The notes under the pieces were generated by a model. The model had not been told where the DNA came from, ran no database searches, and saw only the letters and a list, made by a program, of their open reading frames with translations. Shown here in pieces: positions 3,044 to 62,848 of a stretch of DNA of 64,000 nt (positions are counted from its first letter, which is position 1; every line of letters begins with the position of its first letter). Location: contig JAQUKX010000002.1 in the NCBI GenBank assembly GCA_028718865.1, positions 8,047-72,046 on the forward strand, written 5' to 3'. Both the position numbers and the translations under genes were made by a program. This stretch comes from Patescibacteria group bacterium. GTDB taxonomy: Bacteria > Patescibacteriota > Patescibacteriia > UBA1558 > GWA2-36-10.

Positions 3044-3090
3044 GCCCAGCCCGCCACTGCATTTGCAGGGCGAGGCGGGCTGATTTTATT
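3044..3090. terminator. GC-rich hairpin between convergent rpmA and ftsX (bidirectional terminator)
   Basis: agcccgcc...ggcgggct stem with A-run before and T-run after. Confidence 0.55.
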
Positions 3091-3119
3091 TTAAGATTAT
3101 CCGGCCAAAAGCCGATTTT

Positions 3120-4037: not shown

Positions 4038-4054
4038 ATTTTTGTTTTATAATT

Positions 4055-4738: not shown

Positions 4739-4747
4739 AATTTTTTA

Positions 4748-5650: not shown

Positions 5651-5652
5651 TA

Positions 5653-6057
5653 TTAATTAAAAAAATAATCAAACCATTTTGTAAAATTACTCCGCTGAAT
5701 TTCCGGCTCGGATAAGCGGCTGATTTCCTGGCCGCCGGTGAGAAAAACTTGTTTTTCTCCTGCTCGACCCAAATTGAGCTTGAGCCTAGCCTCTCTTTCT
5801 ATATAATCTTCGGTGTTAAGGTAAACAATAAGCTGCTCAATCTTGCGATTTTTATCCTCTAGGTCGCTCAACTTGTTCTCCAAGCTTCTTATTTCCTGAT
5901 TGATTTGATGGCGTAGCATCAACTCACGACTGACTTTGATAAAAGAAAAAATCAGCAAAAAAAACAAAAGAAGCGCCAAGATACTGGAATTCCATATCCG
6001 ACCACGCCAACTTGATGAACGGCCGGAAGGATTTTTTTTTAGATGCTTATGCCTCAT
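5653..6057 (-). CDS. ftsB: septum formation initiator (FtsB/DivIC family)
   Basis: Single TM, coiled coil, EDYIEREARLKLNLGRAGE motif. Confidence 0.65.
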   Translation of the reverse strand: MRHKHLKKNPSGRSSSWRGRIWNSSILALLLFFLLIFSFIKVSRELMLRHQINQEIRSLENKLSDLEDKNRKIEQLIVYLNTEDYIEREARLKLNLGRAGEKQVFLTGGQEISRLSEPEIQRSNFTKWFDYFFN

Positions 6058-6153
6058 AACCGCGATTTATTATACCACATAAGAAAAATTTTCCCAAATA
6101 TCTTTTGCCTTTCCAGACAAAAAGTATTATAATAAAGAAGTTAAAAAATAAAT

Positions 6154-7077: not shown

Positions 7078-7154
7078 CTTGAATAAAAATATTGTTTTTG
7101 CTATAAATACCAGCCCAGCCCTTCGCGAAGGGCTGGGCTAAATAAAATTATAAA

Positions 7155-8138
7155 ATGGAAAACTTTTGGCAAAAATTAAAAAAACCAATAATCACCACCA
7201 CGCCAATGGCAGGAATTACTGACAGTCCTTGGCGACAGATCTGCAAAATATGGGGAGCTGATGTAGTTCATACTGAGTTTGTATCAGTAGATGCTCTTTA
7301 TTATGATAGCGCCAAAAGCCTAAAAATGATTGATTATAAGCCAATTGAACAGCCGGTCGTAGCACAAATTTTTGGTAAACGAGCGGAGCTTTATCCCAAG
7401 GCTGCCAAAATAGTAGAACAACTTGGAATAGCTGGTATTGATATCAATTTTGGCTGTCCAGCCAAAAAAGTAGCTGGTCATGGTGGCGGTATTTGCCTAC
7501 TTAGAGATTTGGATAATGTCAAAAAAATAGTAGAAGCTACTATCAATTCTGTAAAAATTCCTCTATCGGTCAAAACTAGAATAAGCCTAAATACTGTCAA
7601 AGGTCAGCCAGAAAAAGGGCAAATAACTGTTTTGGATTTTATAGAAGCTATAAAGGACTATCCGATTTCCGCTATGATAGTCCATGGCCGTACTTATGAA
7701 ACTCCCTTTAGCGGTCCAGTTGACTTAGAAGCTTTAAAAAGCGCCCGAAATGAATTCAAAAAACACTGGCCTCAAGGAGTTTTTCTAATCAACGGCTCTT
7801 TTCAAACTGTGGAATCAATAATCGAGGATTTAAAATACACTCAAGCAGACGGCATTGCCCTATCACGCTCTCTTTATGGCCAACCTTGGCTTTTTAAGCA
7901 AATAAAAGATTATTTAAAAACCGGCTCCTATCAGGAAATAAGCAAAGAAGAAATTATTGATACTGCCATAAAGCATTCTCAATTACTTTGGGAATGCAAA
8001 GGAGAATCGGGTTTTAAAGAAATGAGAAAACATCTTTTATTTTATGTCAAAGGCCATCCCCAAGCTAGCGAACTAAGAAGGGAATTGGTAGCTGTAGAAA
8101 AACCAAAAGATGTTGAGAAAATAATGGAAAAAATTTAA
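7155..8138 (+). CDS. dus: tRNA-dihydrouridine synthase
   Basis: PMAGITD...FGCP...catalytic region typical of the Dus family. Confidence 0.85.
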   Translation: MENFWQKLKKPIITTTPMAGITDSPWRQICKIWGADVVHTEFVSVDALYYDSAKSLKMIDYKPIEQPVVAQIFGKRAELYPKAAKIVEQLGIAGIDINFGCPAKKVAGHGGGICLLRDLDNVKKIVEATINSVKIPLSVKTRISLNTVKGQPEKGQITVLDFIEAIKDYPISAMIVHGRTYETPFSGPVDLEALKSARNEFKKHWPQGVFLINGSFQTVESIIEDLKYTQADGIALSRSLYGQPWLFKQIKDYLKTGSYQEISKEEIIDTAIKHSQLLWECKGESGFKEMRKHLLFYVKGHPQASELRRELVAVEKPKDVEKIMEKI

Positions 8139-11100
8139 CCTTTAATCAGAGATTTTTTTCCTGCAAAAATCTCTTTCATAGCCTTAATTCCTTTTATTTT
8201 TAGATCCCATTTATTATCACCATTGGTGTCTATATAAAAAGACTCGCTGCCTCGGCCAAAAGCTCCGCCAAAAGCATCTACCCGCTTGACTATGGCGTAT
8301 TGGCCATTGACATTGATAGTTACTAGCTCGCTGTCTCGACCAGTGCCAAATCTCTCTGCCATAGTATCAAAATCTTTAGCCGTATGACTGTCAAAAGAAG
8401 CTAGCATTTTATCCATAGTTATTTCCGGCGATTTTATTTCTTCAGTCGTCAATACTCTCTTTAGCTCAAACAGAAAAATATCCCTTTTATTATCACTCAA
8501 ATCATTGTCTTGAAAATAATCTCTGACAAAAGCGCTAGCTTGTTCATTTTCTCCTTTGGCCAAAATACTTCTAAATAACTCGTCCAACTGGCCTTGTTCT
8601 TTGGCCACGGCAAATAAATCGCTACTGTAGCTGCCTTCTCCTTTACTAATTAAAGCTTCTATTTTTTCTAGGCGCGCTTGTCTGGCAATTTCCGCTGCAT
8701 CCGGCGCTTCCGGCGCAGGGGCTTGGCTTATATTTTTTTCCGCCAAAAAATCGGACAATTTTTCGGAGCTCATTTCCTGATGACTGCCATCTGGAGAAAT
8801 TACATCCGGACGACCGTCTCTGTCCCAATCATAAATTTTATAAACCCCCTCTTCGGTTTTTACTTCCAAATACTGATCGCCAGTACTAGTATCTATTTTC
8901 AATTCATGTTCAACTCCTTCTGCAAAAGAAGTCTGTTCAAACATTTTACCAACATTGGTATCTGACAAATGACCAGCTTCAATACCTGAACTAGCTTCAA
9001 ATATTAATTTTGGCTCGCCGTCTACAAGTTCTACTTTAACTGTATCGCCGTCATGAACCAAATCTGCCAGATTACCTCCTTGTTCTTGATTGAGAGCCGC
9101 CACTGCATTGGCCGTTTGATTTTCCGCCCATTTGGCCAAAGCCTCGCTATCTTCCAAGTCCCCTGTGTATCCAAGGCCTTGGGCATTTTCTCTAAAAAGC
9201 GTCCGAGCTGAACGCCAAATTGAATCTGCCCCCCTGACTTGAGAAGAATCTATTTTTTTCTCAAAAGATACTGTCTTAGGTTGTTCAACAACTGAAGAAT
9301 CAGCTGTTTGAGCCTCGCTTGTCTTAATAGCTTCCGCAGTAGCACTGCTCTGGACTTCCTCAGAAGAATCTATTTGCATATCCTCCAATATCTGCGTTTT
9401 TTCAGGTATAACGGGCTTGGTTGATTCTGCTGCGGCTGTTGCCATTTTCAAATCAGGTTTTTGCATATCAGCGCTATCAAGTTTGGCAAAAGATAAATCA
9501 TCCGCTGCTTCTGTTGAAGAACTGGTTGTCGTACCTTCAACTGCATCTTGGGATAGAGTTGCCGCCAAATCCTCTGCTCCGCCTGCCATTCTCTCTCTCA
9601 AATCATCAAGTAGCTTACCAATAGGTAAAGTTTCTCCTTGGAGGGCAAAATAAGCGATGCCAGCCGCTCTAGCCAAAGTACCTATCGCCTCAAGGCGATC
9701 CATGGTTTTATGACGACTTTCTTTGGTTTTGCCTTTACCGGACAAAGCTCTAAAAGTTTCTCTAGTGGAATTAGCTAATAAGTCTCTCAAAATAAACTTG
9801 TTTTTCGATTCTTTAGCCTCATCACCACCTCTTCCAACTGAAGCTTCTTTTTTATAACTAACAGAGGCCTTCTGGCTCCTCTCTATCATTGAGGCCAAAA
9901 GATAAGAACCTCCTCTTAACATGCCAAAACCAGCTTGCATTAAAACCAAATTAGCAGCATCTTTAGCTATCTTTACTCCTTTAATTTTGTTTTGGATATA
10001 AAGATCAAGTTCTTCCTGAACCCTGGCTTTTTTTTCTTCTTCCAAATCAGCAGATTTTTCCTGATATTTCTGATCTAAAGATTCTAAACGATCCAACAAA
10101 ACCTGCTTTTCCTCTGGAGAAATATTTTTTGAGTCTTCAATTACTTGTTTTACTCTATCTTTTTCGCCTTTGACCAAAGACTCTTTGACTATTCTTTTTT
10201 CTTTCTTTATTTCGGTTTTTTGTCTTAGATAATTATAAATATCACCTTTACCAACAAAAACTCCTAAAACAACATCGCCGGCAAATTTATAGCCAGAAAT
10301 AGCACCAATAGTATCATAAATCGCTTTAACCGCTACTCGCCTTTGTTCTGAATTAGAAAAAACTTCTTTAAAGTTTTTTAAATTAAAACCCTTTCTTCTT
10401 TTCTTTTCTGACTTTCCTTCATTCTCTAAGATTTCTTCAGATGTTTCTTTTTCAAATTCCTCATCTTCTTTTTCTTTTATGAGCTCTAACTTCGCATCAA
10501 GTTCCAAAACGCTATCTTCTATTTCTTTTTTCCTTTGCTCAAAATTTAATTCGTCATCAACAAGTATCTGTCCTATTTTATTTTTAAATATTGTTAAAAT
10601 ATTATCCAATTCTCCCCACTTTTCTTTGGGCTCAATCAAGTCCCCTGCTCCGTCATCAACAAAAGGAGTCGCTTCTCTTATTTCTTTTATTTTTTTCTCA
10701 GCCTCAGAAATTATATCAGCAGCCAAAGTTTCCAATTGCCCCTGATTAAAATCCTCTACTTCTTCTGACACAGAATCAGCTGAAATCGGTTGTTCCGAGA
10801 CAATATTCTCTTTGTTGTCAGCTTCCGACGCTTTATCTTCAACCACATCCTCAGGACCGATTTCTATTTCTTCAGGTTTTTCTAAAATATTTTCATCATT
10901 AGTTTCTTTTGTTTTTTCTGCCTCAGCTTGATTAGCAGACTTACTACTCCTATACTCCGCAGACAATTTATCGACTTCGGCCAATGTTTTTTGAAAATGT
11001 TTTTCCATCATATCCACTTTGGCCTGATAATCAAATCCTTCCATGTCATTGACAGCCATATCTTTGCAAAAAAACCAAAATTCTTGGGGCACTCCATTCA

Positions 11101-11815
11101 ATTTATTCTTTAGCCAATCGCCTTCTTCATTTTTAAGAGATCCGATTATATCCGCAATTTTGGCTTGCAACCTAGCAGAATACTCCTGAGCTTTTTTGTA
11201 TTCAGGGGTATTTTTTTGTTCAACTGACAGTCGACCAGCTGATTCTATCCCAGCCTCTACTGCTAAAGATTTTTTTGTACTAAATCCTTGTCCCCGCTGC
11301 TTGTCTTTTTCTTTTACAGGTAAAGCGTCTCGAATGATACTTGCCTCTTTTTTGTCTTGTCTTGGTAAAGTGGTCCTTGCTACTTGCTCTGTATCCGATC
11401 CATCAATTCTACTTGGACTGATTACTTCAGTTGAAGCCAAAGTAACAGTAGATTTTTCTTTCTCCGTAAAACTATGCAAACCAACTTCCTCGGCTTTCAA
11501 TCTACTCTCGATATTATCAATTTCCCTTTCACTATCCTTTGCCAAATTTTCAATAGCTGATTTTTTCTGATCTTCGGGGAACAAGACTTCTTCAGCCTGT
11601 AATATACCACGAACATTAACTTCAAAATCTGCCAGTATCTGCTCAATTTGAGCTATTTCTTGACCAAGATCTTTCTCCTTATTCGAACGCCACAACTCTT
11701 TCAAATTATTTACTCTGGCTGTAAGTTCAGCAATTTTACGATTGGCAAAAGTCTCTAAATCATCTTTGGATTCCAAAAATTCTTGGCCCATTATATGCTC
11801 ATTTTTATCCGACAT
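8135..11815 (-). CDS. giant (1226 aa) Glu/Lys-rich coiled-coil protein, unknown function
   Basis: Long uninterrupted ORF, low complexity, no recognisable catalytic motif. Preceded without a gap by two small ORFs. Confidence 0.7.
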   Translation of the reverse strand: MSDKNEHIMGQEFLESKDDLETFANRKIAELTARVNNLKELWRSNKEKDLGQEIAQIEQILADFEVNVRGILQAEEVLFPEDQKKSAIENLAKDSEREIDNIESRLKAEEVGLHSFTEKEKSTVTLASTEVISPSRIDGSDTEQVARTTLPRQDKKEASIIRDALPVKEKDKQRGQGFSTKKSLAVEAGIESAGRLSVEQKNTPEYKKAQEYSARLQAKIADIIGSLKNEEGDWLKNKLNGVPQEFWFFCKDMAVNDMEGFDYQAKVDMMEKHFQKTLAEVDKLSAEYRSSKSANQAEAEKTKETNDENILEKPEEIEIGPEDVVEDKASEADNKENIVSEQPISADSVSEEVEDFNQGQLETLAADIISEAEKKIKEIREATPFVDDGAGDLIEPKEKWGELDNILTIFKNKIGQILVDDELNFEQRKKEIEDSVLELDAKLELIKEKEDEEFEKETSEEILENEGKSEKKRRKGFNLKNFKEVFSNSEQRRVAVKAIYDTIGAISGYKFAGDVVLGVFVGKGDIYNYLRQKTEIKKEKRIVKESLVKGEKDRVKQVIEDSKNISPEEKQVLLDRLESLDQKYQEKSADLEEEKKARVQEELDLYIQNKIKGVKIAKDAANLVLMQAGFGMLRGGSYLLASMIERSQKASVSYKKEASVGRGGDEAKESKNKFILRDLLANSTRETFRALSGKGKTKESRHKTMDRLEAIGTLARAAGIAYFALQGETLPIGKLLDDLRERMAGGAEDLAATLSQDAVEGTTTSSSTEAADDLSFAKLDSADMQKPDLKMATAAAESTKPVIPEKTQILEDMQIDSSEEVQSSATAEAIKTSEAQTADSSVVEQPKTVSFEKKIDSSQVRGADSIWRSARTLFRENAQGLGYTGDLEDSEALAKWAENQTANAVAALNQEQGGNLADLVHDGDTVKVELVDGEPKLIFEASSGIEAGHLSDTNVGKMFEQTSFAEGVEHELKIDTSTGDQYLEVKTEEGVYKIYDWDRDGRPDVISPDGSHQEMSSEKLSDFLAEKNISQAPAPEAPDAAEIARQARLEKIEALISKGEGSYSSDLFAVAKEQGQLDELFRSILAKGENEQASAFVRDYFQDNDLSDNKRDIFLFELKRVLTTEEIKSPEITMDKMLASFDSHTAKDFDTMAERFGTGRDSELVTINVNGQYAIVKRVDAFGGAFGRGSESFYIDTNGDNKWDLKIKGIKAMKEIFAGKKSLIKG

Positions 11816-11820
11816 AATAT

Positions 11821-11997
11821 TTAAAATTGAGTATTAATTTTATCTAAAATGGCATCAATCTCATCTTTTTCCCTAGAGTCAATACGTTTTTTTATCTTTA
11901 AATCAACACTTTTTTCCACTTTATCTATCTTAGCCAAAGCTTCTTGGTAAGCTGTTTCTATCAGTTGTTTGGTGTTTTGATTTTTTTTGCCGTACAT
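11821..11997 (-). CDS. small protein (58 aa), possible operon partner of the giant protein
   Basis: ATG..TAA ORF sits in the 185-nt gap: 2 nt from the downstream start and 2 nt from the upstream stop. Below the ORF-track length cutoff. Confidence 0.35.
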   Translation of the reverse strand: MYGKKNQNTKQLIETAYQEALAKIDKVEKSVDLKIKKRIDSREKDEIDAILDKINTQF

Positions 11998-11999
11998 AA

Positions 12000-12326
12000 T
12001 TATAAATTATCAGTCAGCTTTTTCATTTTTTCAATAGTATCATTATCCAAATCCGCTTGCTTTTCTTGATACTCACTTTCTATAGCAGTCAAATTTTTTT
12101 TAAAATCACTATCGGTCTGACCAGTTTCTTGACTTAGATGCTGTGCTTCCAAAATATCTAGCAACTCTTCTACTTGCTCCAAAGACATTTCTGGTAAAAG
12201 TGCCAACCAAGCTTCTTTTTGCTCTTGAGGCATCTTGGACTGAGAAAGAAAAAAAGCTAGCTTTTGTCCTTTGTCTTTTGCTAGCTCTTCTAGTTTTTTT
12301 TGCTCTGAATTTTCCATTTTAATCAA
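12000..12326 (-). CDS. hypothetical acidic protein (108 aa)
   Basis: ORF track. First gene after a strong terminator, heading the 12326..8135 gene string. Confidence 0.5.
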   Translation of the reverse strand: MIKMENSEQKKLEELAKDKGQKLAFFLSQSKMPQEQKEAWLALLPEMSLEQVEELLDILEAQHLSQETGQTDSDFKKNLTAIESEYQEKQADLDNDTIEKMKKLTDNL

Positions 12327-12360
12327 AATTACTGCTTATTTCACTGCTTTTATTATAATA

Positions 12361-12432
12361 TAAAATAGCAAAAAAAGAAAATACCGCCGGCGCTTTTCGT
12401 CAAGATGTGTCTTGACTTAAGCGCCGGCGGCG
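12361..12432 (-). terminator. long GC-rich perfect hairpin terminator (nested palindromes) with 3' U-tract
   Basis: ccgccggcgctt...aagcgccggcgg with inner gtcaaga/tcttgac. Followed on the minus strand by TATTTTCTTTTTTTGC. Confidence 0.7.
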
Positions 12433-12467
12433 TGTGTTTAGGGTTTTACCCCCTTTCTAGGTAGTGG

Positions 12468-14306
12468 TTACGACGTCGGCGGAGTTACACCACCGGTCTT
12501 GAAAATCTTGCCCAAGCTCTCCATGAGCTCAGGCGGCAGGGCGGCGAAGAAACGGTTTTGGCCCTCAAACAATTTAAGAGCCATGTGATACCTCATTGCC
12601 GCCTGCATATCACCGCCAAGAGCTGCGGCCAAAGGCTCTAGGGTAGAGAGAATGGCTTTGCCCTCTCCCTTAGCCTTTTGATCAACACCCTCTCCTTCCT
12701 GAAGCATCTGCAGCACCTTTGTCTGGGCTGCCTTGAGCTTCTCCTGAGCATCACGAATGGCCTCAGGAGGATTGATATCACCAGTCCGCAGCGAGTAGAC
12801 ATGAAATCCCAGGCTCTTCAAATCATCATAGACATATTGACGGAAGGAAACTGGTTTCCCGTCCATCAAAAATCTCTTATTTGAAGTGAGGAGCCGGGCG
12901 AACAAGGCCTGATCCATAGTCATACGACTAAGAAAACGGGCCAGAGCGGGCCACAAAGACCTCCGCTTGATGAGGTTCTCTTTGTCCTTCCTATCTTCGT
13001 CCTTGAGACGAAGAAAGTTCTCCTTGTCCTCTTTCCTGGGCCAGGTGAAGACCGACAGGTTGATTTCGACCTCCACTTCTGGACCGGCTTCTACGCTGAC
13101 CTTTTTACCGCCATCGCTGCCCTCGTATTTCATAATCCCAGAATCAAAATCGTCCGATTCGGGATAAGGAATGCGACTGGTCGGCAATTTCTCGCTCTTA
13201 AACGTGTCAAGTTCCCAAACTTCTTCCCTGAAGATATAGGCTCGCACTATTGCGCTCGGAAGCCAGACCGAGATCAGACTCAACCAAATGCCTTTACGGA
13301 AGCAATGGAGATCTTCTCCTTTCTTAATGAGGTAAACCTTCTGTGTCTTTCCATCTTCTTCTATGTCTTGCTCCAGCTCGAACATATCCTTCTTTTCCTC
13401 GCCCCAAAAATAGAAGATCGGGTCATAGACATCGCTGCCAAACCACTCATAGACCAAGCTATGAGCAGTGGGCAACTTGATCAATGCGGAAAGTAGATAG
13501 AGTACGATTACAACTAGTGGGGTAAGGATGATGCCAAGACCACCAAACATCGTCTTGGGAGAGACAATGCTGATGATAATGGTGAGGTTGAACAGAAGGA
13601 AGCAGATGAGAGGTGGATAGAAGAAAAGAAATTTGAAGGCGAATGGCTCCCTACTAATCGGATCTAGAGTTACTAGCCACTGCCCCTGCTTAATGGCCTG
13701 TATGATTCTGATGCTAGCCAAAACCGCAATCAGAATAACAGCAATGAGCTTCCCGATAGGGATATCAGGAGTCTCTACTGTCGTCCCAAAACTGAAGCCA
13801 ATCTTTCCCCTGATCACCGTGTACACCACGGCAATCAGAGCAACGCTAAGAAGTGCATTCCAGCGTCGACGCCGGAACCAGAAGATACCACCGACCCAAA
13901 GAGCCAGCAGCAGGGCTACCAAATCTTGCCAAATAGGCACTTCCTCCTTGGTCACCTTGCCGCCAGTGGTACTGGCGACAGCACCAGAAGTGGAATCAAT
14001 CACTTCCGATACAGTACCTGACCCGGACTTCAACCAGCTGGGCCAGCTTGGCTTGCCCAGCATTTCCGACAAGGGCAGATCCGCCATCAGAAAAATGAAG
14101 CAAATGCCCACGAAGGCGATGAAGCTCCAGCCCATCACCATGCCCCACTCGACATAGTGACGGTTCTTGCGTTCGTCCTTCTTGCGGTACATCAGGATGA
14201 AAAACCCGATCACCAAGAGAAGGAATAGGGGCCAGGTAGACCCCAGTTTGAAGATTTCAATGCCTTCACGCATGAAGGCAACGTCACTGTCGTGAATGAG
14301 CTTCAT
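12468..14306 (-). CDS. polytopic membrane protein (612 aa), GC-rich, possible SPFH-like C-terminal domain
   Basis: Multiple hydrophobic helices in the N-terminal half. C-terminal EAIRDAQEKLKAAQ...AEGE-like stretch. Composition much more GC-rich than neighbours. Confidence 0.7.
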   Translation of the reverse strand: MKLIHDSDVAFMREGIEIFKLGSTWPLFLLLVIGFFILMYRKKDERKNRHYVEWGMVMGWSFIAFVGICFIFLMADLPLSEMLGKPSWPSWLKSGSGTVSEVIDSTSGAVASTTGGKVTKEEVPIWQDLVALLLALWVGGIFWFRRRRWNALLSVALIAVVYTVIRGKIGFSFGTTVETPDIPIGKLIAVILIAVLASIRIIQAIKQGQWLVTLDPISREPFAFKFLFFYPPLICFLLFNLTIIISIVSPKTMFGGLGIILTPLVVIVLYLLSALIKLPTAHSLVYEWFGSDVYDPIFYFWGEEKKDMFELEQDIEEDGKTQKVYLIKKGEDLHCFRKGIWLSLISVWLPSAIVRAYIFREEVWELDTFKSEKLPTSRIPYPESDDFDSGIMKYEGSDGGKKVSVEAGPEVEVEINLSVFTWPRKEDKENFLRLKDEDRKDKENLIKRRSLWPALARFLSRMTMDQALFARLLTSNKRFLMDGKPVSFRQYVYDDLKSLGFHVYSLRTGDINPPEAIRDAQEKLKAAQTKVLQMLQEGEGVDQKAKGEGKAILSTLEPLAAALGGDMQAAMRYHMALKLFEGQNRFFAALPPELMESLGKIFKTGGVTPPTS

Positions 14307-45525: not shown

Positions 45526-45559
45526 AAAGATAGCGCTATTATAGCATAAAAAAAGATAA

Positions 45560-45680
45560 TTGGCTCTGCCATGAACCATGACGGTTTATGGCTCTGCTAT
45601 AAACCATGGCGGTTTATGGCTCTGCTATAAACCATGGCGGTTTATGGCTCTGCTATAAACCATGGCGGTTTATGGCTCCG
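45560..45680. repeat. 28-bp tandem direct repeat, about 4.2 copies (ggctctgctataaaccatggcggtttat)
   Basis: Three identical copies plus one degenerate and one partial copy, at the core/island junction. Confidence 0.7.
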
Positions 45681-45737
45681 AGCTGTGCGAGAACTTAGAA
45701 CCGTTATTTTAAGCGGCTATAAGTCCTACGAAATGGA

Positions 45738-45790
45738 AGCGGCCGTCAAAATGCTCCGCCGGGAGTCGCCGTTCGATTGGATTGAGTAAA
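45738..45790 (+). repeat. copy C of a partially conserved ORF remnant (.. AAVKMLRRESPFDWIE*)
   Basis: Shares gcggccgtcaaaatgct with copies A and B. Reading frame runs in from the tandem repeats. Confidence 0.5.
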
Positions 45791-48732: not shown

Positions 48733-48807
48733 GCGGCTGTCAAAATGCTTAGGGGAGAAGAACCGTACAACGAGGAAGCTATGAAATGGATGGAACGGAC
48801 AAAATAA
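48733..48807 (+). repeat. copy A of the partially conserved ORF remnant (.. AAVKMLRGEEPYNEEAMKWMERTK*)
   Basis: About 88% identical over about 63 nt to copy B. Differences mostly synonymous third positions. Confidence 0.6.
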
Positions 48808-53142: not shown

Positions 53143-53220
53143 GCGGCCGTTAAAATGTTCCGGGGAGAAGAACCATACAACGAGGAAGCCATGAGGTGGA
53201 TGGAAAAAGTCGAACATTAA
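53143..53220 (+). repeat. copy B of the partially conserved ORF remnant (.. AAVKMFRGEEPYNEEAMRWMEKVEH*)
   Basis: See copy A. In-frame TGA about 50 nt upstream, so it is a remnant. Confidence 0.6.
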
Positions 53221-54411: not shown

Positions 54412-54717
54412 TTATTTTTGTGTATCCCGATGTTCCAAGAGTTTCTCGGCTGGGGAGATACCGCCAAGAATTTCATGTGGGAAGTAATTCCAAGCATCGG
54501 TGACCAGCTCAAGCACGTTGCTTAATTCTGAAGCGTCTCCGCCGCGATCAAACATAGCCACTACTTTCATCATGCCGTCGTTATCTTCTTCGTTGTAAAT
54601 GGCGTCCCGGACATGATCTAAGGTAAACTCACTCCCTGTTTCTTTTAGCATTTCCGCGAGCTCCTGCTCGATCTCTTTTCTCCGTTCAAAAATTTGTTGT
54701 TTAGATTCGATTTCCAT
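54412..54717 (-). CDS. hypothetical acidic protein (101 aa)
   Basis: ORF track only. Confidence 0.45.
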   Translation of the reverse strand: MEIESKQQIFERRKEIEQELAEMLKETGSEFTLDHVRDAIYNEEDNDGMMKVVAMFDRGGDASELSNVLELVTDAWNYFPHEILGGISPAEKLLEHRDTQK

Positions 54718-54759
54718 AAATTATTCGACCCGACCTGTTTGCGCGCAAGCAGAACCCCC

Positions 54760-55626
54760 TTAAACTTTTACTGGGCTAAGCTCTTTTGGAAAAATCATTA
54801 CCTCTCTGCCGATTTTAGATTCATATGCGTTGTGTTGAATAGCAAAACCCCTCAGGCGCATTGATGCATATAAATTTTTAATATACGGCACATCATCGTA
54901 AGTCATGATCCATTTTTTGAATGATGATTCTCCCAAAAATTCTGATAGATTTTCGTGATCTTTGTTGCTGTAATGGTTTAGATATAGTGACTGTCCTTTC
55001 TGGAAATATGGCGGATCAAGAAATATAAAATGTTGATTTTTATTTTTGCGTCCTTCCATTTTTTTTAACAATTCTATTCCGTCCAGATTGTATACTTCAA
55101 TTTTATTACGAAATTCTTTAACCTTTTCCAATCGGTCAATGATAGTCTGTTTGGTAAAGCGTGCGTTTACTTTCCATGTTCCGGATTGATCAATTCCTCC
55201 TATCGGTCCGCCATTCATGATCCCTGAACGGTTTGTTCTGTTTAAAAATAGAGTGGCAAATGCAAGTTTACGGTCGCTTTTTGTAGATGTATAAATTGTT
55301 TTTTGTCTTCTCCATTCCTCTATGGTAACCTCGGTCCGCTTTATCTTACCGATTAAATAATCGGCATCAGAAACAGCTATTTTCCAAAAAGTAAAAATTG
55401 CTTTATCAAGATCATTGATAACAATTTTTTCTACTTTTTTGGCAAATAGTAGAGCAAGCGAAGCGCCCGCTCCTCCCGCATATGGTTCCACCAAAACAAC
55501 TTTTTCTTTTTGATCGAAGTTTTTCTCTATTGCCTCAAGCAGTTTATTGGCAAGACGGGTCTTCCCGCCAGGGTAACGCAGAGGGCTGGAGAAACCCGAT
55601 ATTTTTTTGTCAGTTTCTTTTTTCAT
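54760..55626 (-). CDS. Dam-like (D12-class) N6-adenine DNA methyltransferase
   Basis: Motif I region PLRYPGGK; motif IV DPPY (FLDPPYF). Confidence 0.8.
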   Translation of the reverse strand: MKKETDKKISGFSSPLRYPGGKTRLANKLLEAIEKNFDQKEKVVLVEPYAGGAGASLALLFAKKVEKIVINDLDKAIFTFWKIAVSDADYLIGKIKRTEVTIEEWRRQKTIYTSTKSDRKLAFATLFLNRTNRSGIMNGGPIGGIDQSGTWKVNARFTKQTIIDRLEKVKEFRNKIEVYNLDGIELLKKMEGRKNKNQHFIFLDPPYFQKGQSLYLNHYSNKDHENLSEFLGESSFKKWIMTYDDVPYIKNLYASMRLRGFAIQHNAYESKIGREVMIFPKELSPVKV

Positions 55627-56972
55627 TTTTTTGCGTGCGTAATGTTCAACATCGCTCCGATGATAATCGACATTCCTACAGTTTGCTCAAAATTTGCAGA
55701 ATTGGCATAGTTATGCGCACCGGATTGCAATAACTGAATCAAACCCTTTGCGTTAATAATACTGTTGTTCGCCAGGGTTGTCTTCTGGTCTTGTGTCAAT
55801 TGTTTTTTTGCATTTTCGTAATTGGCATTCACGTAATCCGCTATTCCTTTTGTTTTCGGAGTAGCAGATTCGATGAGTAATCGTAATGACATTCTGATCA
55901 ATGCAGGAAAATTTTTTGATAATTTGTCCGTATTTTTTGAGTAAAAGTCATATAGGTCCAAAACGTCCATATAGATATTATTTGCGTCTCCTTTTTTCAG
56001 CACCAAATCCTGTCCGAATAGTGCTTGCACTTTATTCTTTTCTCTCGCTGTTTTCCTTGGCGCAGGCAGTTCTGCTTTCTTCTTTTCTACCTCGGTACTC
56101 TTCTTGGTAACAGAAAAACTGGGGTCTATCTCTGCAAAGACATTTTCAACTAGCCAATCTTGAGTAGCTTGTGCTGGTACCTTGTGCGGATCTGTAATAT
56201 AAGGAACCAAGAGCTTTAGTTTTTTGTCTGATTCATTTCGGTTTGTAAATGTTATATCCCCTTTATTATTGGTTGAGTAATCCAAAAGTTTCTTTCCATT
56301 TGTACTTAGAATCAAACGGTCTATTTTGTTGAAACCAGACTTGAGTAATTCTTCCTCATCTTTGTCTGTCCTGATTTGTTCTAAAATCTGTTCGTAGAAA
56401 AATAGTTTCTCAAGCTCTTTCTTAAAGAGCGTAGGCGTTACCCCATACTCGGAAGAAGCAGAATCAATATCATACTCCCCGGAATCTATCAAATTTCTGT
56501 ACATTCTGAGTTTTTGTAATACTTGCCAAGGTTTTAGAAGCTGATTGACATGAATATCCCAAATTTCTTTCTCTGCTTCCTTGCGAGAGGGGGCAATGGT
56601 AATCTTTACATTCTTGAGTTCTTGTTTATTAGTAATCTTATTTAGTTCCTCTAGTTCCTTTTTATCCCGAGCATTTGGTGCAAGCTCGGGTTTAAGTAAA
56701 AGTTGGCATGCTGCTAACCGACGATTTCCGTCCAAGACTATTGTCCGTCCGTTTTCTTTACAGACAATCGCAACGGCACTTCTGTGGTAGCCATTATTTG
56801 CAATATTTCTCGCGATTCTCAAAATATCCTCTTTATCCAAAAGATAGTTCCTAACTTGAGTAATATCGTTTTGATCTCTGACATGTTTTGGTAGGCGTGG
56901 ATTTTGCAAATCCAATTCTAAAGTTGCAACATCAACAATGTCATCCTTCCAATTGTTTCTTGTTTTTGCCAT
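55623..56972 (-). CDS. ParB/Srx-fold (ParB-like nuclease domain) protein with about 350-aa uncharacterised C-terminal extension
   Basis: N-terminal QNPRLPK ... VLDGNRRLAA. 4-nt overlap (ATGA) with the Dam-like gene. Confidence 0.6.
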   Translation of the reverse strand: MAKTRNNWKDDIVDVATLELDLQNPRLPKHVRDQNDITQVRNYLLDKEDILRIARNIANNGYHRSAVAIVCKENGRTIVLDGNRRLAACQLLLKPELAPNARDKKELEELNKITNKQELKNVKITIAPSRKEAEKEIWDIHVNQLLKPWQVLQKLRMYRNLIDSGEYDIDSASSEYGVTPTLFKKELEKLFFYEQILEQIRTDKDEEELLKSGFNKIDRLILSTNGKKLLDYSTNNKGDITFTNRNESDKKLKLLVPYITDPHKVPAQATQDWLVENVFAEIDPSFSVTKKSTEVEKKKAELPAPRKTAREKNKVQALFGQDLVLKKGDANNIYMDVLDLYDFYSKNTDKLSKNFPALIRMSLRLLIESATPKTKGIADYVNANYENAKKQLTQDQKTTLANNSIINAKGLIQLLQSGAHNYANSANFEQTVGMSIIIGAMLNITHAKK

Positions 56973-57072
56973 ATACGATTATTTATATTATAGCGAGTTT
57001 TTGAATATTTTTCGATAGCATAAATTTATTTTTACTCCGGAAACTTACCGCCCGAAATATCAAAAGCTCGTA

Positions 57073-58236
57073 TTACCGATTACCTTTTGCCCGATTATGG
57101 GTTTTACACAGCATCTCACAATTTTTTACATCAGTAGCACCACCCTTGCTCCAAGCCGAAACATGATCGGCGTCCATATCTGCCAAAGTCCAAATTTTAT
57201 CCTTGTTTGCATCATGACCAATCGCGCAATGTGAGCAGTTCGAAATACCTTTCTTTTTTGCGGCGGCAGTTTGAGCCTCATACACCGAACGTTTTGTTGA
57301 GTCTTCAAATACTCGAACTTCAAGCAATTTTGTTTCTACTTCTCCACCTAAAACATATTCGAAAATACCTTTACGACTTTTCACGAAACCATCGGCATAG
57401 AGTTTCTGAACCTTAGCAGAAACTGTTGCGGGGTTATATTTTTTCTTGTGGTACGTCTGATACAGCCTGTTCCATTCAAGACCCTTCATTTCACTTTCAA
57501 CGTCTGTGAAGGTAGTCGAAACCCAATCGATAACAGTCTCGAAATGCTTTTTTAGTTCAGTGATGTTTTTGTCGTTACGATGTTTACTCATGTAGCTATC
57601 GATTTCTCCATCAGAGACCCAATCTAAAGCCCGTTCTAAATATGCTTGACGTTTGATATCACCTGCGATGTAGGTACTCCATTTCTGAATGTTGGTATTT
57701 TGACTATTACTAAATTCTTCGCGAGCGCGAGTGACAAATGGCCCAGAATATACTGCATTAAGAATCTCTTGTTCGGTTAATGGTACTCCAGCGATATTAA
57801 TAGTCTTAAACCAATCCTTGATCTCAGGCTCGTCACCTTTACACAAATACACTAACAATCTGGCGTCCATTATTTGCTCGCGCTGACTAGTAGCCATACC
57901 ACTGTAATATTGTTCATGACCATTCTTATCTTTGACAGCAAACTTGCCTGTCACGAACCGACCGATGCTAGTGATGCGTTGCTGTCCATCGAGCACTTCA
58001 AATTTATCAGTACCAACTTGGTTAAAATAAATTAAACCTATTGGGTAACCTTTCAAAATTGAGTCAATTACGGCAACATCACGTTTGCCATCAGCGTAAA
58101 TGTAGTTACGCTGATACTCTGGCTGAATAGTTAGTTTACCCGAGAGACCAAACAACCCTTTTCCTTCGAGTTCGTTATAGACGAAGCCGTCGCAAACTTC
58201 TTTTATCGTGATGTCATTTTTTAGTGTGGTTTTCAT
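57073..58236 (-). CDS. DUF262 (DGQQR) + C-terminal HNH nuclease fusion (GmrSD-like modification-dependent restriction family)
   Basis: QPEYQRNY and LDGQQR motifs. C-terminal CSHC...DADHV...N...CKTHN HNH. Confidence 0.8.
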
Positions 58237-58238
58237 AA

Positions 58239-59429
58239 TTATTTTTTCTTGTGCTTAATTAAGACTCTCTGATAAACTTTTTCTCTCAACCCATCGCGGA
58301 GTACTACGCCACTAGCATTCAAATCGTACACACCTTTCTTACCAAACTTATCTAAATATGCTTGCTTGCACTCCGCAGAGGTGTAGACTTTTGTTTTTTG
58401 CTTGTATAAATCCTCATTTTCACACATTCCCACAATTTCAAACTGCTCAGGGGAATACTTATCAAGAAAACTAATTGGGACACCCATGATGTTTTTGTAA
58501 TCACTCGGAATATTTTTTACCAACGAAACTTCAATTGCGTTATAGTTCTCGTATTTTTCAAACTCCTTGTTTGTTGAGAACTTAATAACATCCGATTTTT
58601 TCATCAAAGGAATCGGTTGATGAAGTCGTCCGTGATCAAGGTTCGTGAACCAACGAACACCTTGAACTCTTGTTATGTATACTTTTTTACCTTTTTCATC
58701 GGTTTTAATTTCACGAACTTGATCTAGGTTTGCAACAGCTTCTGGAATCTCATAAAACATTGCACCGCCATTAACTCTTGCGTTGTTTCCGAGCCATACC
58801 TTATTTTCTTTTATCATTGGAAAAACTTCCTTATAGGTTATTGCATTGAGATTACCAATGATTAGAAAATGTTTTTTATGATCAAAAAGTTGCGTAATAT
58901 ATTCACGAAATAAACTAAATGGAGGATTGGTGACTACGATGTCAGATTGTTTGAGCAACTCGACACACTCGTCGCTTCTAAAGTCGCCATCACCCTCAAG
59001 CGGAGTCCATTCGTTGTTTTTGTTAGTTCTAAGCTGTTGGGCAATATCTTCTAGTGTAAAAGAGCCGTCGCCGTCCACATCACCAACTTCGTTGATAATA
59101 AATTTATTAGCGACAATTTTTGGTCGCCCTTTGACAGGTTCGAGGGTAATATCATCACCAAATAGTCCTAGTTGAGTATTTGCAACTGGTGACGGTTTGT
59201 AGCTAGTTGCAATAAGTCTTTTCAACCCTAATCTTTTAAAATTTAGGACGAAGTAGCGAAAGAAATTGCTTTCAAATGGGTCGTCGCAGTTGCTGTAAAC
59301 CACCTTACCTTTAAAAGTATTTGGGTCATACTCAAGATAAGACTCGACTTCTTTTTGGATATCTAAAAATTGAGTATAAAATTCATCATTTTTTGCCTTC
59401 TTTGCATTTGTAAGATTTTTGTTTGCCAT
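58239..59429 (-). CDS. N6-adenine DNA methyltransferase (NPPF motif IV)
   Basis: N-terminal DEFYT; VVTNPPFS catalytic motif. Stop overlaps the start of the DUF262-HNH gene. Confidence 0.75.
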
Positions 59430-59578
59430 AAATTTATTTTTCGCTCTCAGCTCGAGCTTTTAACAAAAATATAGTTTCGGACTTCAATTTCGCCCGAGCC
59501 CAGTCTTTTTTGGCTGTTTTGATAGTCATTTGATGGTTTGTCATGTAGTGAAAATAAAATATCGGGAAAGTGCCCAAT

Positions 59579-61054
59579 TTAAGAGGAGGAAATGCCCTTA
59601 TCTGTTTTATTATCAACCCCCCTTGAAAATAAACCCTTAGGAACCTCCTGGCCGGGCTTCCGGTAATAACTGTCCTTTTTAGCCTTGCCAATTTTTTCCA
59701 ACAAGCCCTTATCAACCCAACCACGTAATAACCGGGACATTTTCAAAACATCACTAACTCCGGTTATCTCCCGTGCCTTTTTATTGATAATGCGGTAATT
59801 TTCATCAAGATATTTACTGACGGTATCCCAGTATTCAATCTTATGCATATTGAGAAGTAAGAGTAGAACTGAATTCGGTCTTAGTGTTGGAGGAAAAAAT
59901 AATGGCTCGTATAGATTTTGTTCTTTCATAACCTTAAACATACGATCAACACCTTCGCCGATGTCAAGATTAGGTGCCGTCTGGAAACGGTTCAACGTTC
60001 GTAGGATTAAAGGATTACGAGCAAAACGCTCGGCCCTGATATTTTCAACAGTGATATGGCCGGGGTAAGTTCCGGGACTCTCAACTTCAACACGATCATC
60101 AAAAAACCGCACCTGAATGTCATCTTGCACAAAATAATTCCTATGAATAACCGCATTGGTTATTGCTTCTTGAAATGCCCATTCCGGTATCAAAAAGGTT
60201 GGATTGAAAGAAGCTCCGCTTAATTTGGGAGGTGAACTTTTTACAATTCCCCGAAAATACTCAATAGCTTGTTCAATTTGCTTCATCAGAGGCCCTTCGA
60301 TGGTGAATGGCCGAGTGACAAAGTTTGGCTTACCGGTGTAAGTCGGTTTTGTTCCGTAATAATGAGAAACTTTTATTCCGCATTTACTTGTTAGGGCGAC
60401 TGAGGGGTTCTTCCCAAAAAGCAAAAGTCCGGCTTTAGTCAGCTCGTATTTGCCATTACCACCGACGGCCAGGCCGTTGTCTTTCAAAAACTGCCAATCA
60501 TCTAAGCCTGTGCTCGAGGTATCCTTTTTATATTGAGCGAGGAGATCGTGGTCTAAATTTTCAAGGGAAGTAGTGCCGGATTTTTCGCTCTCGTACTTAA
60601 TTGCACCTTTTTCGTATTTAAGGCGCATTATTTCTGTCGAACCAATCTTTACATTTTGTCTCCCTTTTCTGACAAAAGTATCCCCTCGTTTAAGTGAATG
60701 AACATCATTACTCTTTTTGATATTGAGTACCAAGAGCTTGTCCGCCTGTCCTTGAGCATTCGTGATATCAAGCTCGAATTTTCCCCACAGTATAAGCGGC
60801 GGCTCAATTTCTTTATCAATTAGCTTAAGAAAATCGGAAACATTATCTGGATTTTCGCTGATTCCTAGAAGCCGTTTGTCCCCTTGGGCTTTAGCCGGAT
60901 CTTCCAAACCGACTACTATAAAACCACCGTCCGCATTAGCGAAACCGACTACTGTTTCCAAAAAGTCGGCCGGTCTAATCGCGGCTCGTTTACATTCAAA
61001 AGTTTGCCACTCTTGGGTATCCAGAAATATTTTTACTATGTCTTTATCTTCCAT
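59579..61054 (-). CDS. Schlafen/AlbA_2 DNA-binding domain + HATPase_c_4 ATPase protein
   Basis: N-terminal FANADGGFIVVG pattern; C-terminal AITNAVIHRNY...VESPG pattern. Confidence 0.75.
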   Translation of the reverse strand: MEDKDIVKIFLDTQEWQTFECKRAAIRPADFLETVVGFANADGGFIVVGLEDPAKAQGDKRLLGISENPDNVSDFLKLIDKEIEPPLILWGKFELDITNAQGQADKLLVLNIKKSNDVHSLKRGDTFVRKGRQNVKIGSTEIMRLKYEKGAIKYESEKSGTTSLENLDHDLLAQYKKDTSSTGLDDWQFLKDNGLAVGGNGKYELTKAGLLLFGKNPSVALTSKCGIKVSHYYGTKPTYTGKPNFVTRPFTIEGPLMKQIEQAIEYFRGIVKSSPPKLSGASFNPTFLIPEWAFQEAITNAVIHRNYFVQDDIQVRFFDDRVEVESPGTYPGHITVENIRAERFARNPLILRTLNRFQTAPNLDIGEGVDRMFKVMKEQNLYEPLFFPPTLRPNSVLLLLLNMHKIEYWDTVSKYLDENYRIINKKAREITGVSDVLKMSRLLRGWVDKGLLEKIGKAKKDSYYRKPGQEVPKGLFSRGVDNKTDKGISSS

Positions 61055-61058
61055 ATGA

Positions 61059-61253
61059 TTACTTTTTATGTTTCTTTTTTACATTACTCGTTTCTTCAAG
61101 AAAGGCGTTGAGATCAGACTGTTTGATTCTCCAGACTCCGAGCTTGGAAGCCTTTAATCGACCAGCCTCAATATACCGAGTAACTGTGCGAGTATGTACT
61201 CGCAATATGTCGGCGATTTCCTCAATAGTGAAAAGTTTTTCGATGTCGTTCAT
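61059..61253 (-). CDS. excisionase/AlpA-family HTH DNA-binding protein (64 aa)
   Basis: FTIEEIADILRVHTRTVTRYIEAGRL HTH. 4 nt upstream of the ATPase gene. Confidence 0.7.
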   Translation of the reverse strand: MNDIEKLFTIEEIADILRVHTRTVTRYIEAGRLKASKLGVWRIKQSDLNAFLEETSNVKKKHKK

Positions 61254-61334
61254 AAAATTGCTTTAGGCGTTGATATCATTTTATCGCTTCTGCTTTCCGT
61301 TGTCAAAATCGCCGTCTTTTGTCATAATGTCTTT

Positions 61335-61520
61335 ATGGAGACTAAATACTCAAAAATGGAAGTGCTCGAGCGACCGAAGTTGGTCAATCGGCCGACATGT
61401 AAAACCTTCAAGCTCGAGGGTGGGTGTTGGGATTGTGGCCATACGAAATTCCGCTATTACAATTCCGTATTCGGTAAACGATATTACCAATGTGAGAAGT
61501 GTCGGGCGATCAATCATTAG
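61335..61520 (+). CDS. small zinc-ribbon protein (CxxC...CxxC), divergent from the Xis-like gene
   Basis: ATG in frame with track ORF 61194..61520. CWDCGH...CEKC. No clear SD. Confidence 0.45.
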   Translation: METKYSKMEVLERPKLVNRPTCKTFKLEGGCWDCGHTKFRYYNSVFGKRYYQCEKCRAINH

Positions 61521-61588
61521 ATTTTACTATATCAGCCGGTTGATATAGTAAACGGCTTTACTGTCTCAGTTGAGTGATATAGTAAACT
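61521..61588. promoter_or_regulatory. three copies of a 13-bp site TGATATAGTAAAC (one inverted, forming a perfect 12-bp-arm palindrome; two direct)
   Basis: tttactatatca-gccggt-tgatatagtaaa, then gtgatatagtaaac about 30 nt later, immediately after the zinc-ribbon stop. Confidence 0.5.
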
Positions 61589-61964
61589 GGAAAGGGCGTT
61601 TATCACCCCTTCTAGTTAAAAAATGAACTCCGTCAACTTTCTGTCAGTTTTTGTCAGACAAATTATTGTCCACAGCAAACAGCTCTTGCGGCGTTTTTCC
61701 GGATCAGCTAAAATACATACATTAGAGTTAGTTAGTCTGACGGCGACTGAATTTTCAGTCTAAACGCGACGGGACTACGACTTCTGTTATCAAACCTTTC
61801 CGCTTTGTTGTGGATCGGAACTTGGTGACAAGAGTCGTGGTCCCTTTTTCGTTTCTAACCGGCTCTGCAAATTAATTTTTCCCTCTGAGGCTAAGGTGCC
61901 CAGATTAGACTGACGAATTTGATTAGACAGATAAAGGCTAGCTCCCAGCAGGGGCCAGCCTTTT

Positions 61965-62165
61965 ATGTTGCCCCAGGAAGCAATCCAAGAATTTAAAACA
62001 CTGTATGAAAAACGCTACGGCGTGAAGCTCTCCGATGAGGAGGCGTCTTTGCGCGCAAACAATCTTTTCAAACTCTACAAGATTACCTACATGGGTGAGC
62101 CTTCTATTGATGACTTCAAAGAAAAAGTAGTGAAAAGCCATGACCTCAACACCAACCACAATTAG
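61965..62165 (+). CDS. small hypothetical protein (66 aa)
   Basis: ORF track; follows a roughly 340-bp non-coding stretch. Confidence 0.4.
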   Translation: MLPQEAIQEFKTLYEKRYGVKLSDEEASLRANNLFKLYKITYMGEPSIDDFKEKVVKSHDLNTNHN

Positions 62166-62448
62166 CGAAATACAGTTCTACCCAGTTAAACCCCAGGACG
62201 GCCTCCTTGGGTTTGTTTCGTTTGTGCTGGACGGGAAATTCTGGATGGGATCGGTGGCCGTATTCTCCCGGCGCGAGGGAGGATACCGGCTTGTATATCC
62301 GACACGCAAAGTGGCCGGACAAAACGTGAATATTTTTCATCCGATAAACCACGAAGTCGGCGGCCTGGTCGAGGCAGCCGTCAGTGAAAAAGTAGCTGAA
62401 ATATTTAGTGAATCATATGAACAAACCGAACCGGACAACACGTGGTAA
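62140..62448 (+). CDS. spoVG: SpoVG-family nucleic-acid-binding protein
   Basis: ISEIQF...V.L..KFWMGSVAVF...HPIN pattern matches B. subtilis SpoVG along its length. Confidence 0.75.
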   Translation: MTSTPTTISEIQFYPVKPQDGLLGFVSFVLDGKFWMGSVAVFSRREGGYRLVYPTRKVAGQNVNIFHPINHEVGGLVEAAVSEKVAEIFSESYEQTEPDNTW

Positions 62449-62848
62449 AAGCTTAAATTTCTTTCCAGCTCCTCACCTGATTTTCGATGACAACAGGCTG
62501 AAGAATTCGCTCACGCATGCCGAGCGAGATTTTCTTATGGTGATCTGTCATCTCTCAAACCGCTACGCGAATGCAGACGGCTGGTTTTGGCATACGGACA
62601 GATTGTTTACGACACGCGAAGATAAAGAACGCGGGTTCGCTTCATTCGGGTTCAGCAGATCAACATGTCGACGCGTAAGAAAGAAGCTTGCCGGTCTTGG
62701 GCTTATAGAAACCAGACCGGGAACATCGGAACGTGGCCGGTGGGCCGGAACTTTATATCGTCTTAACCCAAAACTTCTCCACTCTACCAGGGTTCATAAT
62801 GAAGCACGGTCAGGCGTCTTAGAGAATCACGGCCCGGGTCCACCATGA
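62408..62848 (+). CDS. putative replication initiator / winged-helix DNA-binding protein
   Basis: Basic wHTH-like protein immediately upstream of iteron-like repeats. Start uncertain; overlaps the spoVG-like end. Confidence 0.5.
   Translation: MNHMNKPNRTTRGKSLNFFPAPHLIFDDNRLKNSLTHAERDFLMVICHLSNRYANADGWFWHTDRLFTTREDKERGFASFGFSRSTCRRVRKKLAGLGLIETRPGTSERGRWAGTLYRLNPKLLHSTRVHNEARSGVLENHGPGPP

Follow-up and report, generated by a model that had tools for sequence, protein, structure and literature searches.

The subject of this study is a string of six genes on the minus strand, between positions 54760 and 61253 of a stretch of 64,000 nucleotides (nt) of contig JAQUKX010000002.1 from a Patescibacteria group bacterium; this whole stretch is hereafter called the window. 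The six genes are very probably three independently mobile two-gene modules that share one orientation and occupy a defence hotspot of what is probably an integrative mobile element. Module A (59579-61253) consists of a gene for a small helix-turn-helix (HTH) protein and a gene for an AlbA_2/HATPase_c_4 protein. Module B (57073-59429) consists of a gene for an EcoRI-family DNA methyltransferase (MTase) and a gene for a DUF262-HNH nuclease. Module C (54760-56972) consists of a gene for a ParB-fold protein and a gene for a D12 (Dam-like) MTase and is similar to the anti-phage system PD-lambda-5. The arrangement of the six genes is a coincidental cargo of the hotspot and not a new six-gene system, and the genes probably form three transcription units rather than a single operon.

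Neighbourhood conservation was examined for modules B and C separately. For module B, one genome per species (185,579 species) was scanned with the DUF262-HNH protein and the best 80 of the 383 stretches encoding a relative were analysed; for module C, metagenomes were scanned with the ParB-like protein and 26 loci proved informative (single loci are denoted by L and a number). Of the 80 module B loci, 79 had the EcoRI-family MTase gene immediately 5' of the DUF262-HNH gene. No ParB-like, Dam-like or AlbA gene was present in any of these 80 loci and an HTH gene was present in one. Likewise, all 26 module C loci had a D12 MTase gene immediately 3' of the ParB-like gene; among these loci neither an AlbA nor an HTH gene was found and a distant MTase/DUF262-HNH pair was found once, in L099. 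In that locus the MTase/DUF262-HNH pair is 3.4 kb away from the ParB-like/D12 pair and its nuclease is 37% identical to that of the window. Around module B no other gene family was shared by more than 12 of about 65 loci, and the recurrent neighbours are recombinases, toxin-antitoxin, Fic and RhuM-type genes. The closest relatives of the window modules, which are 95-97% identical, were found in other genomic contexts.

When such close relatives were aligned to the window the modules were seen to be exchanged precisely at two intergenic gaps. In two loci, L117 and L118, homology to the window is confined to the HTH and AlbA genes (59548-61241, 85% nt identity), after which both continue into a different restriction-modification (R-M) system (C5-MTase/Vsr); in both a large serine recombinase adjoins the small open reading frames (ORFs) next to the HTH gene. 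L129, whose nuclease is 97% identical to that of the window, matches only 57073-59448 and homology within this block is lost only across the cassette region of the MTase, 58263-58783. L128, whose ParB-like protein is 96% identical, matches window positions 54605-57064 at 95% nt identity. It also matches the element backbone beyond the other end of the gene string, where window positions 61620-62259 (plus strand) correspond to L128 positions 1312-1951 at 84% nt identity; this segment contains a 66-aa ORF (o66), the protein of which is 89% identical in L128, and the start of a SpoVG-like ORF. In L128 the space between the two matching blocks is taken up by an AAA_14 ATPase and a complete type I R-M system instead of modules A and B. 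A locus that keeps the backbone and module C but has other genes where modules A and B would be marks the region as a defence hotspot, the cargo of which is interchangeable. The boundary between modules A and B is at 59551-59578, since the homology to L117 stops there, and at this position a terminator-like hairpin with a T-run, which is a consensus match only, lies on the minus strand directly 3' of the AlbA stop codon. The boundary between modules B and C is the 100-nt gap at 56973-57072 (minus strand), where the 95% homology to L128 begins at 57064 and the homology to L129 ends at 57073. A promoter-like site, TCGAAA-17-TATAAT, is within this gap (57015-56987, minus strand) and another is upstream of the HTH gene, both again being consensus matches only.

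A preliminary description of the locus had listed six co-directional minus-strand genes with the domains named above, and all six ORFs were confirmed on that strand at the same coordinates by the ORF calls, by Pfam and PADLOC matches and by the motifs NPPF168 in the EcoRI-family MTase, DGQQR83, CSHC334 and DH357 in the nuclease, DGNRR81 in the ParB-like protein and DPPY204 in the D12 MTase. As regards the junctions, the ATGA overlap between the ParB-like and D12 MTase genes and the 4-nt spacer between the HTH and AlbA genes were as described, and the EcoRI-family MTase and nuclease genes, described as translationally coupled, do not overlap but are separated by a 2-nt spacer, TAAttATG; the remaining two junctions, read from the sequence like the others, are a 149-nt gap between the AlbA and EcoRI-family MTase genes and a 100-nt gap between the nuclease and ParB-like genes. 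This tight packing of six co-directional genes weighs against three separate modules, as do three other points: the promoter and terminator sites are consensus matches whose total number is not above the shuffled expectation, the recombinase and the ends of the element were not seen within the window, which ends at 64000, and the match to PD-Lambda-5_A is limited to the N-terminal half of the ParB-like protein. Read-through transcription and functional cross-talk may also still occur; for example, each MTase might protect against both nucleases, or module B might be regulated by AlbA. That the six genes make up one composite defence system or operon, in which two MTases, two ParB-fold nucleases and the AlbA ATPase act together, was what the preliminary description mainly proposed, and this is now hardly credible: the short spacers, the common gene direction, the ParB/Srx-fold N-domain that both effector proteins have beside an N6-adenine MTase and the presence of both pairs on a second island, L099, speak for it, but co-occurrence in none of the module B loci and in just one module C locus, the 95-97% identical relatives elsewhere with breakpoints inside the intergenic gaps, and the distance and low nuclease identity of the L099 pairs speak against it. 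It fails because the neighbourhood analysis shows that the three gene pairs are adjacent only here, and such coincidental adjacency had been named in the preliminary description itself as a ground for abandoning it. What stands is the defence, R-M and mobile-element character of the locus, and the alternative offered there, a mobile-element cassette, came close to the truth; the composite module does not stand, and the pairs that had seemed to be without a name are covered by the PADLOC models MTase_II and REase_II and by PD-Lambda-5 A and B.

In module B, the EcoRI-family MTase (58239-59429, minus strand, 396 aa) matches EcoRI_methylase PF13651 (2e-122) and the PADLOC model MTase_II PDLC03297 (1e-101), and it is of the gamma-class, NPPF, N6-adenine type. 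The nuclease (57073-58236, minus strand, 387 aa) matches GmrSD_N PF03235 (1.3e-21) and HNH PF01844 (5e-6), and over its full length it matches the PADLOC model REase_II PDLC03418 (2.4e-85); weaker PADLOC matches were to HEC-05/06 and PD-T4-2_A. It consists of a DUF262 domain, which is of the ParB/Srx-fold NTPase type and has the DGQQR motif, and a zinc-finger HNH domain at residues 347-387 with the CSHC and DH motifs. Its AlphaFold2 (AF2) model is of moderate quality with a mean predicted local distance difference test (pLDDT) score of 70, and its best fold match among PDB structures was BrxU 7p9k followed by ParB CTPases and SspE, all of these matches being weak. No PDB sequence matched the EcoRI-family MTase, the nuclease or the ParB-like protein, and NCBIfam gave no match for the nuclease. 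Relatives of the nuclease in the 80 loci are 70-96% identical to it and their hosts are Patescibacteria, Bacteroidota, Chloroflexota, Actinomycetota, Omnitrophota and others, with further copies of the module on plasmids of Enterococcus, Rhodococcus and Moraxella. The MTase and nuclease genes are spaced by 2-10 nt in most loci. In about 12 loci unrelated cargo, such as a RhuM-like, Fic-like, AAA ATPase or TIR-like gene or a second MTase gene, is present between the two genes. Such cargo is at 5580-7206 in L060, 3458-4966 in L014 and 2391-3572 in L077 and includes genes for a Fic-like protein, for an AAA ATPase of 502 aa and for a TIR-like protein of 169 aa that has two partners. Insertions of a similar kind have been described for type I R-M operons, and the genes inserted here are candidate accessory defence genes.

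When the two proteins of module B were compared across loci, the nuclease was more conserved than its MTase in 96% of the locus pairs, the mean identities being 77% and 61%, respectively, and the nuclease alignment had no indels among 77 sequences. The divergence of the MTase is concentrated in two segments. The first, V1 (58644-58787, minus strand, residues ~215-262), is a hypervariable cassette with 17 types among 77 loci, and the second, V2 (58284-58415, minus strand, residues ~339-382), is another with 34 types among the same loci. Pairwise identity within each cassette is bimodal, two sequences being either unrelated or almost identical; for V1 it is either below 30% or at least 70%. The two cassettes are shuffled independently: 54 V1 x V2 combinations were found among the 77 loci and a single V1 type was combined with up to 8 V2 types. 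At matched divergence of the catalytic domain, nuclease identity was independent of whether the cassettes were the same or different (0.82, 0.82 and 0.81), and in some locus pairs the nucleases are 95% identical and the cassettes are unrelated. One metagenome-assembled genome of Saccharibacteria has two copies of the module, on contigs CAZSKX010000003.1 (L028) and CAZSKX010000001.1 (L029), in which the nucleases are 88% identical and the MTase cassettes unrelated. This exchange of discrete cassette alleles between otherwise conserved genes is like the shuffling of target recognition domains (TRDs) in type I HsdS and type III Mod proteins, and in HsdS, too, the two TRDs assort independently. 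Unlike in HsdS and Mod, the cassettes of module B are short (~45 aa) and lie inside a monomeric EcoRI-family MTase, and the restriction partner is a DUF262-HNH protein and not a helicase-type HsdR or Res.

A conserved nuclease beside a cassette-shuffling MTase appears, from these alignments, to be the reverse of what is expected of classical type II R-M systems. From this pattern we infer that V1 and V2 would be recognition elements and that the nuclease would lack a matching sequence specificity, being either directed or licensed by the MTase or able to sense the methyl mark regardless of its context. A tentative proposal is that module B belongs to a widespread uncharacterised R-M class in which all specificity would reside in the two recombining MTase cassettes and a universal, near-invariant nuclease would restrict unmarked DNA, either by being recruited or licensed by the MTase, as in type III systems, or by reading N6-methyladenine free of context, as in SspE. 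More generally, module B is best read as an R-M-like pair, in which the EcoRI-family MTase would mark adenines at sites read by the two exchangeable cassettes and the DUF262-HNH protein would cut unmarked DNA, probably under the control of its NTP-binding ParB-fold domain. An ordinary type IIP pair is as possible, and as doubtful, as the uncharacterised class: MTase and nuclease would then independently read the same fixed site and the variable segments would be surface loops with no role in specificity. The full-length matches of both proteins to PADLOC models built on R-M reference sets and the classic M-then-R gene order agree with this, and so does a mild under-representation of GAATTC in the 64-kb window (observed/expected ratio (O/E) 0.55, z -2.0), but the latter is not significant after multiple testing. 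In the same window the search for palindrome and k-mer avoidance gave only generic palindrome depletion, with O/E of 0.81 for GATC and 0.89 for AATT. Against a type IIP pair is the occurrence of the variable segments as discrete unrelated types that recombine freely, next to a nuclease that remains at least 88% identical, has no indels and does not depend on the cassette type. Restriction endonucleases (REases) of type II systems of different specificity are usually unrelated to one another, whereas the nuclease of module B is near-invariant across the 54 cassette combinations, which points against the nuclease itself recognising the site of the MTase; the role of the cassettes in specificity is itself only inferred. 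Cleavage independent of NTP is also doubtful because of the NTPase-type DUF262 domain, which is atypical of type IIP enzymes. Thus module B is like type II R-M systems in having separate MTase and nuclease genes in the order M-then-R that both match R-M reference hidden Markov models, and differs from them in a nuclease that has a ParB/Srx-fold NTPase domain, is better conserved than its MTase and shows no co-variation with the cassettes.

Very unlikely is another explanation for module B, in which the DUF262-HNH protein would attack foreign DNA that is modified, as type IV enzymes of the GmrSD kind do, and the adjacent MTase would be functionally unrelated to it, as an orphan or an anti-restriction decoy. 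In its favour are the DUF262 domain with its DGQQR motif, BrxU as the best structural match and the weaker PADLOC matches to HEC-05/06 and PD-T4-2_A, but the MTase gene is upstream in 79 of 80 loci over many phyla, mostly at a spacing of 2-10 nt, and the C-terminal nuclease is a zinc-finger HNH (PF01844) and not DUF1524. Among the features of GmrSD, therefore, the DUF262 domain with DGQQR is present in module B, DUF1524 is absent and the gene is not solitary. With GmrSD, BrxU and SspE the nuclease shares the fusion of an N-terminal DUF262 domain to a His-Me/HNH nuclease; it differs from them in its length of 387 aa compared to ~560-580 aa, in its HNH type and in being paired with an N6-adenine MTase. 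The preliminary description had regarded DUF262-HNH enzymes as normally solitary, which does not apply to the present family, and had regarded the coupling of one to a modification module as unusual. For this coupling SspE is a precedent, as its DUF262 nuclease works with a host DNA-modification module (PMC9646914), and the link had been noted by Makarova and colleagues in 2013, who described ParB-superfamily domains fused to HNH, PD-(D/E)xK or HEPN nucleases that are linked to DNA-modification systems (PMC3632139).

Module C is a further member of the PD-lambda-5 family, as the defining features of this family that can be tested are present in it, with only half of the A protein matching. PD-lambda-5 is an experimentally validated broad-range anti-phage system of E. 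coli P2-like prophages (Vassallo et al. 2022, PMC9519451); its authors described it as a compact 'RM+Abi' and its cloning required an mrr-deleted host (PMC9519451). The ParB-like protein (55623-56972, minus strand, 449 aa) is identical to NCBI PHO91_01010 and has no Pfam match, but in PADLOC it matches 21 sub-models of PD-Lambda-5_A, the best at 5.8e-27, with residues 8-229 of 449 covered. The D12 MTase (54760-55626, minus strand, 288 aa) matches MethyltransfD12 PF02086 (1e-19) and, with residues 12-284 on profile positions 4-274 of 291, PADLOC PD-Lambda-5_B (PDLC04018) at 1e-101. Like PD-lambda-5, module C has two genes, one for a ParB-fold protein and, downstream of it, one for a D12-class adenine MTase, with conserved adjacency and carriage in a mobile element or hotspot. 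It differs in its host, which is a Patescibacteria and not an E. coli P2-like prophage, and in the C-terminal domain of its A protein, which has no Pfam match and a fold of low confidence and in place of which relatives carry a DpnII/MboI REase domain. The N-terminal part of the ParB-like protein (residues 1-290; 56103-56972, minus strand) consists of a ParB/Noc-like N-domain and a helical DNA-binding-like region and is modelled by AF2 with a pLDDT of ~90 over residues 10-290. In a Foldseek search this model matched the CDP-bound ParB/Noc structures 7bnk, 6sdk and 7ol9 (E ~1e-3, probability 1.00) with TM-scores that are low because of the domain orientation, and the predicted succession of a ParB N-domain fold and a helical DNA-binding region is like that of the ParB/Noc CTP-switch clamps.

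The preliminary description gave the ParB-like protein an uncharacterised tail of about 350 aa. As residues 1-290 fold confidently, this tail shrinks to ~160 aa, which consist of a disordered K/E-rich linker (289-331) and a five-helix C-terminal domain (residues 330-446; 55635-55985, minus strand) modelled by AF2 at low confidence. This domain, a putative effector, has the invariant residues R364, E368 and H446 and has neither a Pfam match nor a fold assignment at its pLDDT of 46-67. A preprint lists a HEPN domain in PD-lambda-5 (10.1101/2024.10.26.620412), which was not confirmed in the window protein at this low AF2 confidence. In relatives the first 290 residues are conserved at 55-68% identity, but the C-terminal domain is a different one, such as a second helical type or PF18742 REase_DpnII-MboI (1e-39). 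The window-type C-terminal domain is present in 121 clusters of 50% identity, where it almost always ends proteins of ~410-490 aa, and 8 of 10 sampled proteins with it are PD-Lambda-5_A matches, some of these reaching into the C-terminal domain. Cassette-type variation is absent from the D12 MTase of module C, the divergence of which is evenly spread. The D12 MTase would mark host DNA, and the exchangeable C-terminal domain of the ParB-fold protein would be the effector, either a restricting or an abortive one. That close relatives pair a DpnII/MboI-type nuclease with a Dam-class MTase lends support to such R-M-type logic in module C. A side observation on this family concerns Escherichia phage Wphi (L081, AY135739.1, 96-3266), in which gp98 shares the ParB-like N-domain at 29% identity and adjoins gp96 and the divergently oriented cytosine methylase Mth; this locus may represent a variant similar to PD-lambda-5 in which the methyltransferase is of the C5 type.

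In module A, the HTH protein (61059-61253, minus strand, 64 aa; HTH_17, Pfam 3e-16) is of the excisionase/MerR type, matching TIGR01764 'excise' (6e-11) and PHROG excisionase families. The AlbA_2+HATPase_c_4 protein (59579-61054, minus strand, 491 aa; Pfam SLFN_AlbA_2 1e-14, HATPase_c_4 1e-15) is of the COG2865 type, a recurrent companion of R-M systems, and among PDB sequences it matched only the uncharacterised structure 3lmm. The pairing of the two genes recurs in L117/L118. Homologues of AlbA that are 83-97% identical are next to or inside R-M loci (type I, ISP, IIG and C5) in 5 of 7 distinct sampled contexts; they were seen after a type ISP and after an MmeI-like type IIG enzyme, within a type I system (between hsdM and hsdS), inside a further type I/IIG locus, before a C5-MTase/Vsr pair, in a toxin-antitoxin island and once among housekeeping genes. 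Module A travels with many kinds of R-M systems and its role would be either that of a regulator or that of an accessory effector. The more specific idea that the HTH and AlbA pair is dedicated to the R-M modules downstream of it in the island, as their transcriptional controller or sensor, draws on its position at the head of the gene string and on those five contexts, but it is unlikely, given that the partner R-M systems are of unrelated types, that AlbA is absent from all 80 module B loci and all module C loci, that one homologue is among housekeeping genes and that a terminator-like hairpin is between modules A and B. Membership in the MADS system was considered and rejected, as the sole match was that of the generic HTH protein to MAD1 (PADLOC mad1 2e-10; NCBIfam 28 bits, below the NCBI cut-off of 80). 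The model of its authors makes MAD6, MAD7 and MAD8 mandatory (10.1101/2023.03.30.534895), and MADS is excluded because none of these three was matched; in PADLOC none of the six proteins matches mad2-8.

On one side of the gene string is a set of accessory genes (P-type ATPase, ArsP, ArsR, thioredoxin, DsrE and TauE), and on the other side are small phage- or plasmid-like ORFs of excisionase type, SpoVG-like and, at 62408-62848, weakly replication-initiator-like. No convincing att-like direct repeats were found around the island and an Rfam scan of 52-64 kb gave no match. The window is like other mobile-element defence hotspots, for example those of P2 prophages (PMC9519451), in that defence cargo is exchanged within a slot between conserved backbone segments, as seen from its comparison to L128; it differs in being a Patescibacteria element of an uncharacterised family, of which neither the recombinase nor the ends were seen in the window. 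L117 (Logan SRR11849220_128982) and L118 (JGI Ga0393278_0000015) have an element region at 2247-13476 that is inserted beside dnaG and rpoD, with the order large serine recombinase, small ORFs, HTH_17+AlbA, DUF7695, C5 methyltransferase, 175-aa ORF, Vsr and further unknowns including DUF6339.

Several other features of the window were observed. Between the ORF at 61194-61520 and the backbone ORF at 61965-62165 are two adjacent 30-nt palindromes (61523-61587), TTTACTATATCA and TGATATAGTAAA, which may serve the element as operators, terminators or recombination sites. The start context AAAATAAATTTATG is present at several gene starts of the window (46335, 51527 and 59429) and also within the 100-nt gap between modules B and C (56982-57033), where it opens an ORF of just 12 codons, MLSKNIQKLAII; this copy may have been left behind when cassettes were exchanged at the junction. 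A 101-aa ORF with no Pfam match (54412-54717) is partly inside the 95% block common to L128, and its homologues are within a few kb of MTase/DUF262-HNH pairs in L049 (85%) and L016 (59%). An intergenic array at 45533-45700 consists of 4-5 head-to-tail copies of the 28-nt unit TGGCTCTGCTATAAACCATGGCGGTTTA and could be iteron-like or regulatory. Finally, a 63-nt element is present at 48733-48795 and 53143-53205 (86% identity) and its 17-nt core a third time at 45739-45755; each copy immediately precedes the start of a metal/sulfur accessory operon on the minus strand (those of the P-type ATPase, of ArsR and of the gene that starts at 45579) and the element may be a shared regulatory leader.

The string of six genes thus reveals no new six-gene defence system, and a false lead is avoided. 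Existing type II R-M models capture module B and PD-lambda-5 captures module C, both families being already in the defence databases, although in the literature searched we found no named REBASE enzyme or published description for the EcoRI-family MTase/DUF262-HNH pair and no mechanistic study of the PD-lambda-5_A family. What the locus does provide is a clean example of a defence hotspot in a mobile element of Patescibacteria in which modules are exchanged at more than 95% identity. The exchangeable C-termini of PD-lambda-5_A, including a DpnII/MboI-type nuclease beside a Dam-class MTase, support an R-M-type mechanism for that family. The EcoRI-family MTase/DUF262-HNH pair is very widespread and strongly conserved across phyla, and its inverted evolutionary pattern, which is read from sequence comparison, hints at a restriction logic different from that of type IIP systems.

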